Shown one piece after another: positions 19,545 through 20,615 of a stretch of 26,772 bases of DNA. This DNA comes from a virus (lineage: Duplodnaviria; Heunggongvirae; Uroviricota; Caudoviricetes). Where the stretch lies: positions 1-26,772 of the IMG/VR virus record IMGVR_UViG_2778260994_000003, one strand, 5' to 3'. The first letter of the stretch is position 1. Every line of letters starts with the position of its first letter. Below the pieces are notes generated by a model. It saw only the letters and a list, made by a program, of their open reading frames with translations, was not told where the DNA came from and did not search any database. A program made the translations under genes and the position numbers.

Positions 19545-20615
19545 TTACCCCCTGAAGCCCGGCGGAATTTCGTTATCCGGTTCAGAAATATGATTCACAC
19601 AACGCTGGTTGTTCGTGCCGCTTACCGGGAGCAACCAGGGGTTCTCAAAATTCCGGTCCGGTCCAAAAAACGTCGTCGCTCGCTGAACAAATTCCGTTCC
19701 CGTTTTCCCGGTAGCCGCCAAGTATCTTGCGTAACGCCTCACGCCATCCAGCATGGCCTCTGGTGGCACCCCCTCGCGTAATCTGGCCTTCCAGGCACTG
19801 AAAGCGGATTTCTTCGGGTTTGCCCCAGCACGCAACGGGTACTCCCGCCAGACCTGTTCGAACACATCCGGATAATCCACTCGTCCCACAGACTGCCCGG
19901 TGTTTTCCGGGACTACCCGATCGGCTTCCCGCTGAATGGCGGAATCGGCTTCAGGCTGCTGCAGTTGGTGTGATTGCTCCGCCCTTGCGGTCATCACCTG
20001 CTGCACAGCGCCCGAATCGGCTTTCAGCGCATACGCTGAATCGGCTTCCGGTGTCGTGCCTGCTGGCTGACCAAGATTGACGGTCTGAACATCCCCTGCC
20101 TGGTTCGTGGCGTTTTTTACGCCATGGACCATAGTGTTTTGATCTTCTTGATCTGTATCTTTATCTGTATCTTTATCTGTCGTGACTCGTCGTGACATGT
20201 GCGTGACATTTCGTGACGCGCCGTGACAATTGCCATTTTGTTCCCGCTTTCTTTCCCTCTCTCGCTGCGCCCTCTTGCGCTCTGCAGGAGATTTTGCGGT
20301 TTGCGAAATATTGCCGTTGTCCTCTTTAAGCACCTGGCGTTTTTCCCATCCAGTGATTAAATCACCATCAAGTACCCGCCCCTGCATCGTCTGCAAAATT
20401 GAATCAATTACCTCTTCTGTCACGTCGAGCGCACTTGCCAAATCTTCTGTCGTGACATCAATGTGACCTCGCGTGACATTTCGTGACGCGCTCACCAGGA
20501 GGTGGATATACACTGCCATCACTGTTGCAATTGGCTGCCCTGACACCCTGGCAATTGTTCGCCACTTAGGGTCATTTGGCATGTCATGCCATAATCTGAG
20601 CCAAGCGTTAGCCAT
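19545..20615 (-). CDS. Replication initiator / replisome organiser (lambda O-like), containing the iteron cluster
   Basis: N-terminus WLRLWHDMPNDPKWRTIARVSGQPIATVMAVYIHLL resembles the phage replisome-organiser N-domain. Acidic low-complexity middle region. GTGAC iterons lie inside the gene. Probable start is the ATG at 20615 with GAGGTGAG upstream. Confidence 0.6.
   Translation of the reverse strand: MANAWLRLWHDMPNDPKWRTIARVSGQPIATVMAVYIHLLVSASRNVTRGHIDVTTEDLASALDVTEEVIDSILQTMQGRVLDGDLITGWEKRQVLKEDNGNISQTAKSPAERKRAQRERERKREQNGNCHGASRNVTHMSRRVTTDKDTDKDTDQEDQNTMVHGVKNATNQAGDVQTVNLGQPAGTTPEADSAYALKADSGAVQQVMTARAEQSHQLQQPEADSAIQREADRVVPENTGQSVGRVDYPDVFEQVWREYPLRAGANPKKSAFSAWKARLREGVPPEAMLDGVRRYARYLAATGKTGTEFVQRATTFFGPDRNFENPWLLPVSGTNNQRCVNHISEPDNEIPPGFRG
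20181..20227. repeat. Iteron cluster 1: five CGTGAC repeats at 10-11 bp spacing
   Basis: CGTGAC at 20181, 20191, 20202, 20212 and 20222, preceded by a 12-bp tandem repeat (ATCTGTATCTTT x2.5, about 20151..20180). Confidence 0.5.
20451..20487. repeat. Iteron cluster 2: four (C/T)GTGAC repeats at 10-11 bp spacing
   Basis: Copies at 20451, 20462, 20472 and 20482. The 21-bp block GCGTGACATTTCGTGACGCGC is duplicated exactly at 20201..20221 and 20471..20491. Confidence 0.45.

Follow-up and report, generated by a model that had tools for sequence, protein, structure and literature searches.

The oriL of phage SPP1 is situated within the gene of its initiator and contains repeated boxes together with an AT-rich segment, and in the P1 and F plasmids iteron clusters flank the rep gene (incC and incA in P1, incB and incC in F), with the second cluster controlling copy number by handcuffing. 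In phage lambda, iterons and an AT-rich tract occupy the central part of gene O; lambda carries four such iterons and Stx phages carry six, each a 19-bp imperfect inverted repeat, next to the AT-rich tract (PMC7466680). Here we analyze two clusters of short, helically phased repeats in a 26,772-nucleotide stretch of viral DNA (IMG/VR record IMGVR_UViG_2778260994_000003, positions 1 to 26,772; hereafter the window), both of which reside within a minus-strand gene for a replication initiator. We propose, with a probability of roughly 0.8, that these clusters are initiator-binding iterons forming the lytic origin of a lambdoid prophage of the Rac site, and that this origin is embedded in the gene for its own initiator. 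The element follows the lambda plan in a different initiator family, and the principle is a textbook one.

On the plus strand, the hexamer YGTGAC begins at positions 20181, 20191, 20202, 20212 and 20222 in cluster A (spacings of 10, 11, 10 and 10 bp), and at 20451, 20462, 20472 and 20482 in cluster B (11, 10 and 10 bp). The initial annotation of this DNA had reported nine such hexamers at 10-11 bp spacing in two clusters, a duplicated 21-bp block and a 12-bp tandem repeat beside the iterons, all within coding sequence. Reading of the sequence and a motif scan bear out each of these observations: the 21-bp block GCGTGACATTTCGTGACGCGC is present as exact copies at 20201-20221 and 20471-20491, the 12-bp AT-rich repeat TCTTTATCTGTA occurs in 2.9 copies at 20146-20180, and the whole array falls inside the initiator gene (Table 1). 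The repeat units, with GTCACG cores at a period of 10-11 bp, contain no internal dyad, and the phasing of about 10.3 bp is helical. Cluster A corresponds to amino acids 130-145 of the 356-residue protein, between the N-terminal domain and the C-terminal half, whereas cluster B lies about 260 bp upstream in domain-coding sequence, where its codons specify the last part of helix 1 and the helix 1-helix 2 loop (residues 45-57). Outside clusters A and B, no 5-mer of the 26.8-kb window forms a run of three or more copies spaced 10-11 bp apart, and no other phased repeat array was found there. Shuffled sequences gave a mean of 0.115 such runs and never more than three copies, and the Poisson probabilities of clusters A and B are 8.5e-10 and 4e-8, respectively.

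This arrangement resembles ori-lambda in that the proposed origin occupies the interdomain region of the initiator gene, with direct repeats followed downstream by an AT-rich tract. The number of repeats likewise varies among relatives (three to six here; four and six in lambda and the Stx phages), and the gene holds the genomic position of lambda O, after the cI, cro and cII-like genes. Unlike lambda, the initiator is non-homologous and has no Phage_rep_O match, and no P or DnaC-type loader gene follows it, either in the window or in the related phage Evi. Moreover, the repeats are non-palindromic cores of 5-7 bp with a 10-11 bp period rather than 19-bp dyads, the AT-rich tract is a hexamer repeat conserved across the initiator family, and a second cluster lies within the sequence coding for the DNA-binding domain, a feature absent from lambda. 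The label 'phage replisome organizer', carried by this family in NCBI and phage records, is shared with the SPP1 G38P-type initiators, whose origin also lies in their own gene; unlike those proteins, the window protein has no Pfam family, and its matches to PHROG 'replisome organizer' families are weak (E 5e-6 to 1.5e-4). As in the P1 and F plasmids, there are two separate clusters of one repeat, one next to the putative unwinding region and the other distant, but here both fall within the coding sequence of what would be a lytic phage replicon.

The conservation of this architecture was examined in homologues collected by an alignment-driven scan with one genome per species, which gave 68 loci from 68 species and replaced an earlier scan of viral contigs, whose 80 near-identical E. 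coli copies were useless for conservation. These species span many proteobacterial orders and include metagenome-assembled genomes of Acidobacteriota, Planctomycetota and Cyanobacteria. Every informative locus shares the same plan: a cluster within the N-terminal domain, after the helix '…VY.HLLV.AS'; a linker cluster, after a Lys/Arg-rich segment; and directly thereafter an AT-rich hexamer tract translated as DKDKDK or DTDTDT. Across 52 loci, the clusters contain 259 internal spacings; 219 of these measure 10-11 bp, and the remainder are mostly 20-21 or 30-31 bp. The core itself differs by lineage (GTCAC in 27 loci, GAACG in 18, TAACG in six and GTGAC in two, with a rough coding-strand consensus of G[T/A]NACG), yet the dominant core, nearly absent from the C-terminal half, is shared by the N-terminal and linker clusters of 51 of 53 loci. 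At the position of the single inverted copy, YGTGAC is found in 16 of 22 aligned GTCAC-class loci. One of the two exceptions to the concerted pattern is a Lysobacter sp. homologue (locus L148), in which six GTCAC copies at 9-10 bp spacing lie near the N-terminus (gene nt 78-125; peptide VTSVTSVTNVTVGH) and the linker carries GTGAC, so that core orientation or class differs between its clusters.

Cluster A contains three to six copies among the homologues, with phasing kept, and copy number shifts by whole phased units. For example, there are 4+4 copies in Pseudomonas phage phita81A and 3+4 in Aeromonas phage pAEv1818, while cluster B of E. albertii carries an in-frame 21-nt insertion that adds two phased iterons and seven codons. 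The linker peptide is otherwise unconserved. Neighbouring genes and C-terminal modules change while the array stays with the N-terminal domain, and phage PhiR5_2 illustrates the converse. Its initiator is 58% identical to that of the window over the last 226 residues only, and it carries AAGGGGCT twice, 11 bp apart, in the linker, along with the reverse complement of the same sequence twice, 11 bp apart, within the N-terminal coding region (locus L004, 3091-3160 and 3375-3410 for the two repeat places). Because relatives that share only the C-terminal half have other repeats at these two places, it is the N-terminal domain, rather than the C-terminal one, that the repeats accompany. The two-cluster layout itself recurs in PhiR5_2 with a different N-terminal domain and in inverted orientation.

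In the AT-rich tract, the GC content of positions 20140-20179 is 0.30, the minimum of the profiled region, and the gene-wide GC minimum begins 1 nt past the last iteron of cluster A. In 43 of 56 homologous loci, the GC minimum starts between -10 and +40 nt from the last linker iteron. The Asp, Lys and Thr residues (D/K/T) of the encoded repeats use GAT, AAA and ACA in 98%, 95% and 100% of cases, compared with 50%, 55% and 17% elsewhere in the same genes, and this bias is unchanged in genes from high-GC hosts whose GC content at third codon positions (GC3) is at least 0.6. No AT-rich tract adjoins cluster B. We also noted two GATC (Dam) sites 9 bp apart within the tract (window 20141-20153); phage Evi has the same pair (locus L154, 4597 and 4606), and GATC is not enriched across the Evi locus.

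One alternative explanation is that the repeats have no function as DNA and serve just to encode a peptide, repetitive or conserved (ASRNVT…, DKDTDKDT), that is required in the protein. The peptide ASRNVTRGH is indeed conserved in the GTCAC class, and cluster B maps to an ordered part of the predicted domain, where the predicted local distance difference test score (pLDDT) is about 90. However, synonymous resampling of the gene with its protein fixed gave 1.72 +/- 1.19 copies of GTCAC (maximum of 7 in 5000 trials), and nine are observed. Because the period is 10-11 bp, the core GTCACG is read in all three frames, as GTC-ACG (V-T), as GGT-CAC or TGT-CAC (G-H or C-H) and as GCG-TCA-CGA (A-S-R), and so no repeated peptide can explain a single DNA core. 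We further examined codon choice in 21 non-redundant GTCAC-class loci (58-77% amino-acid identity, gene GC3 of 0.36-0.75), leaving aside the E. albertii homologue with its 92% identity. In cluster B of these genes, Ala is encoded by GCG in 19 of the 21 (23% being the background in the same genes) and Ser by TCA in 20 (15%), the two Val positions use GTC in 21 and 21 (21%), the two Thr positions use ACG in 21 and 20 (26%), and Gly is GGT in all 21 (17%). The Arg codon between two cores is free (CGA 8, CGT 6, CGC 6, CGG 1). Synonymous sites are frozen within the cores and drift in the spacers, and the D/K/T codons of the tract are 95-100% AT-ending even in GC-rich hosts. A requirement for the peptide also fits poorly with a linker that is otherwise unconserved and whose copy number varies. 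The initial annotation had allowed that a coding requirement might account for the repeats and that homologous genes might lack phased hexamers; the coding requirement leaves nine GTCAC copies against 1.7 and the frozen core codons unexplained, and the homologous initiator genes do contain phased repeats. Conservation of the cores and the GATAAA/GATACA tract at the DNA level goes beyond the needs of the protein, the repeats are almost certainly functional DNA elements, and the peptide-only explanation is extremely improbable.

If the repeats function as DNA, they might bind the initiator mainly for control, through autorepression, a transcription roadblock, or titration and handcuffing, with the true origin elsewhere. 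The sites do lie within the initiator's own transcription unit, the two separate clusters resemble the origin-plus-control layout of the P1 and F plasmids, and cluster B stands apart from any AT-rich tract. Against this, a DNA-constrained GC minimum directly after cluster A, as found in those 43 of 56 loci, is the anatomy of an unwinding site, and the window offers no other phased array. We consider a role restricted to control unlikely for the element as a whole, although it may hold for cluster B alone. Less likely still is the idea that the motifs serve a protein other than the initiator, for example a nucleoid protein of the host, the repressor of the prophage, a factor in packaging or recombination, or the product of the adjacent DUF977 gene. 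The core is short, at 5-7 bp, and the assignment of the initiator as its partner is drawn from sequence; but the array travels with the N-terminal domain in 68 species while neighbours and C-terminal modules change, and relatives with only the C-terminal half, such as PhiR5_2, have different repeats; both observations are expected of repeats read by the N-terminal domain. A binding partner other than the initiator is therefore, in our judgment, very unlikely.

The initiator gene is full length in the window and is listed from a GTG start at 20621 (19545-20621) in the open reading frame list; the start used by NCBI is given in Table 1. Its NCBI product, from an E. coli locus with 100% identity, is WP_001262391.1, a 356-aa 'DNA-binding protein'. 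The best profile match is full length, to phrog_3729 'replication initiation protein' (E 1.1e-256; residues 3-358 against profile positions 1-356 of 356), whereas a Pfam scan returned no family at E <= 0.01, and hence no Phage_rep_O match, and NCBIfam has no usable family. Since the protein lacks a Pfam family and its best PHROG is phrog_3729 rather than an O family, these profile comparisons indicate that it is not a lambda O homologue and belongs to a different, uncharacterised initiator family. The term 'O-like' used in the initial annotation thus suits the position and presumed role of the gene but not its ancestry.

Copies of the gene in deposited phages are 97.7-99.3% identical to that of the window. 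Phage Evi, at 97.7%, was isolated as a plaque-forming temperate coliphage (PMC6969025). Over a 406-nt alignment of the proposed origin, Evi and the window differ by three single bases (columns 199, 241 and 309), none of which alters an iteron core or spacing. The window copy shows no sign, at the sequence level, of a decayed origin, and the near-identity to the cultivated Evi argues that this replication module is one that works in a real phage. In a separate group of homologues, proteins of about 180-190 aa (P0036, P0058, P0059, P0073, P0097, P0099 and P0103), the N-terminal domain is fused directly to an HNH endonuclease domain (PF01844/PF14279), which replaces the usual C-terminal half.

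An AlphaFold2 model of residues 1-125, built from a 46-sequence alignment, has a mean pLDDT of 82 and shows helices at 31-47, 58-65 and 69-79 followed by a beta-hairpin, from which we predict a winged helix-turn-helix domain. The peptide encoded by cluster B falls in an ordered part of this model (pLDDT about 90). A Foldseek search of the model against PDB gave no significant match, its weak top matches being winged-helix regulators such as MarR, CAP and GntR. When iteron classes are compared, most of the difference in the N-terminal domain falls in the helix 1-helix 2 loop that cluster B encodes, and the putative recognition helix and wing (helices 2, 3 and the wing) are nearly constant. Cluster B DNA might serve both as a binding site and as coding sequence for the protein segment that recognises the core, a proposal that we regard as rather unlikely. 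If this were true and the loop reads the core, a change of core would alter the site and its reader together, providing a built-in path by which new origin specificities, incompatible with one another, could arise, with the in-frame 21-bp unit (two iterons, seven codons) as the unit of expansion.

The C-terminal tail of the initiator provides a possible connection to the host. A phmmer search of PDB matched its last 21-24 residues to DnaT chains (6aep, 2ru8 and 9zbt) and found nothing beyond this DnaT tail. The NCBIfam DnaT model NF002770 scored 19 bits, against a cut-off of 201, with the match confined to the last 24 residues, and Pfam DnaT (PF17948) is not found in the window initiator but is present in an Aeromonas phage relative.

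Taken together, the DNA-level selection, the family-wide phasing, the GC minimum of the adjoining AT-rich tract and the concerted change of the core in both clusters strongly support the suggestion, already made in the initial annotation, of an iteron-type origin inside the initiator gene. In the mechanism that we propose, the N-terminal winged-helix domain of the initiator would bind the five linker iterons of cluster A. Because the phasing places all five sites on one face of the helix, it would favour an oligomeric complex, and binding on this face could yield a DNA-bending assembly like the lambda O-some. This complex would then destabilise the adjoining hexamer tract at 20140-20180, and the C-terminal domain with its DnaT-like tail would bring in the host DnaB-DnaC. 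Cluster B could supply auxiliary initiator sites that loop to cluster A over about 260 bp and create a larger complex; alternatively, it could titrate or handcuff the initiator, a role that the second iteron cluster plays in the P1 and F plasmids. Transcription from the cro-side promoter crosses both clusters, so that a lambda-like transcriptional activation of the origin is possible.

Several points weigh against an initiator-bound lytic origin or temper its details. The mechanism is carried over by analogy, from lambda to an initiator that is not an O homologue, and cluster B may be either auxiliary or a control element. The winged-helix assignment is a prediction from an AlphaFold model with non-significant structural matches, and the link from the DnaT-like tail to host DnaB-DnaC is proposed from a similarity of 21-24 residues. 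The sequences compared share ancestry, so their counts are not independent events, although the free spacer codons provide an internal control. Conservation of cluster B could partly reflect protein constraint on the loop, whereas the frozen synonymous sites argue otherwise. Lastly, the literature searched yielded no data on binding, on unwinding or on replication for any protein of this family.

The same chromosomal site in E. coli K-12 holds the Rac prophage, with its oriJ and ydaU-ydaV module and the same flanking Rac genes (recET, kilR, sieB, ttcA side). The K-12 YdaU protein has the same C-terminal tail as the window initiator, with an …IPPGFRG ending, and an GATACAGATAAAGAT tract after a short repeat. 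Unlike the window initiator, YdaU has an unrelated DUF1376 N-terminal domain, and K-12 Rac encodes the DnaC-like YdaV, which has no counterpart in the window. A BLASTP comparison of the two initiators aligns only the C-terminal tail and the low-complexity linker. We considered whether K-12 oriJ is the same element and rejected this identification: K-12 Rac has a different module, YdaU (DUF1376)/YdaV, so that the oriJ studies in print deal with another replicon module. In the K-12 ydaU gene (locus L153, 4120-4977), TGTTCAAACA is repeated in the linker and followed by AATAAAGATACAGATAAAGAT, which is the same design despite the unrelated N-terminal domain. These linker repeats are a candidate sequence-level location for oriJ.

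Table 1. Features of the replication region and its neighbours (window coordinates)
Feature	Position	Strand	Remarks
LexA/cI-type repressor	21317-22090	+	
Cro	21109-21324	-	
YdaT/cII-like	20687-21112	-	
Replication initiator gene	19545-20615	-	356 aa from ATG at 20615; NCBI start
N-terminal domain coding sequence	20334-20615	-	about aa 1-94; predicted winged helix-turn-helix; conserved in 68 species
Iteron cluster B	20451-20487	-	four GTCAC(G/A) cores on coding strand, spaced 10, 10, 11 bp; peptide ASRNVTRGHIDVT
Single inverted core copy	20419-20424	+	coding strand GTGAC, within L-D-V-T codons
Iteron cluster A	20181-20227	-	five GTCACG cores, 10-11 bp spacing, interdomain linker; peptide CHGASRNVTHMSRRVT
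AT-rich GATAAA/GATACA hexamer tract	20140-20180	-	proposed DNA-unwinding element; hexamers on coding strand; peptide DKDTDKDTDQED; two GATC sites
Imperfect palindrome, 13-bp stem	20101-20131		just past AT-rich tract; membership in origin uncertain
Initiator C-terminal tail …SEPDNEIPPGFRG	19548-19619	-	like E. coli DnaT C-terminus; proposed handle for host helicase system
DUF977/Ren-like	19082-19504	-	next gene after initiator
Cargo BCCT transporter	16744-18747	-	beyond DUF977/Ren-like gene

The window matches, with 100% identity, a prophage found at the Rac attachment site of E. coli; intR, xisR, recET, kilR and sieB lie on one flank, and lysis and terminase genes on the opposite flank. DNA similar to the replication region is present in 4229 of 5426 complete E. 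coli genomes, 1558 of which have near full-length copies, and cultivated temperate phages carry it as well. The gene that follows the initiator in phage Evi encodes LygF. Immediately downstream of the replication module, the prophage contains a gene for a BCCT-family transporter (window 16744-18747 and locus L001, 14357-19742), which in the identical AST215 prophage is accompanied by genes for a DUF2254 protein and a hypothetical protein. This region looks like cargo inserted at the place of ydaV and ydaW in K-12 Rac.

We found no description of the origin of this initiator family, in a search that left most subscription journals outside its reach, and nothing relevant on iterons with replisome-organizer, DnaT-like or primosomal-protein-I phage initiators. 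A paper on the replication modules of 'Eru' Stx phages does not cover this type and does not mention iterons. The present analysis owes its value to a dual-coding anatomy that runs through the whole family and to the frequency of this replicon, which is a very common type in E. coli genomes. It provides a clean case of dual coding, in which origin signals override codon choice across many bacterial orders. A site-level map of five and four iterons, an unwinding tract and a host-recruiting tail, each as proposed above, opens the system to experimental work and bears on how replication depends on induction, on whether co-resident prophages are incompatible and on the need for host factors. In addition, phased cores followed by GATAAA/GATACA hexamers are a possible signature with which origins of this initiator family could be annotated automatically.

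Two further repeat features occur past the AT-rich tract. A scan of the region for promoters and terminators found nothing above shuffle expectation except the imperfect palindrome, which is identical in phage Evi, slightly changed in PhiR5_2 and absent from relatives with other C-terminal modules. The motif ATCGGCTTY occurs four times in the initiator gene (plus-strand text at 19920, 19944, 20016 and 20040; window 19920-20048), compared with 0.37 copies expected in the window. These copies lie 90-260 bp past the AT-rich tract and encode the repeated peptide PEADSA, and PhiR5_2 has similar copies. This family may represent a candidate DNA site or a protein repeat.

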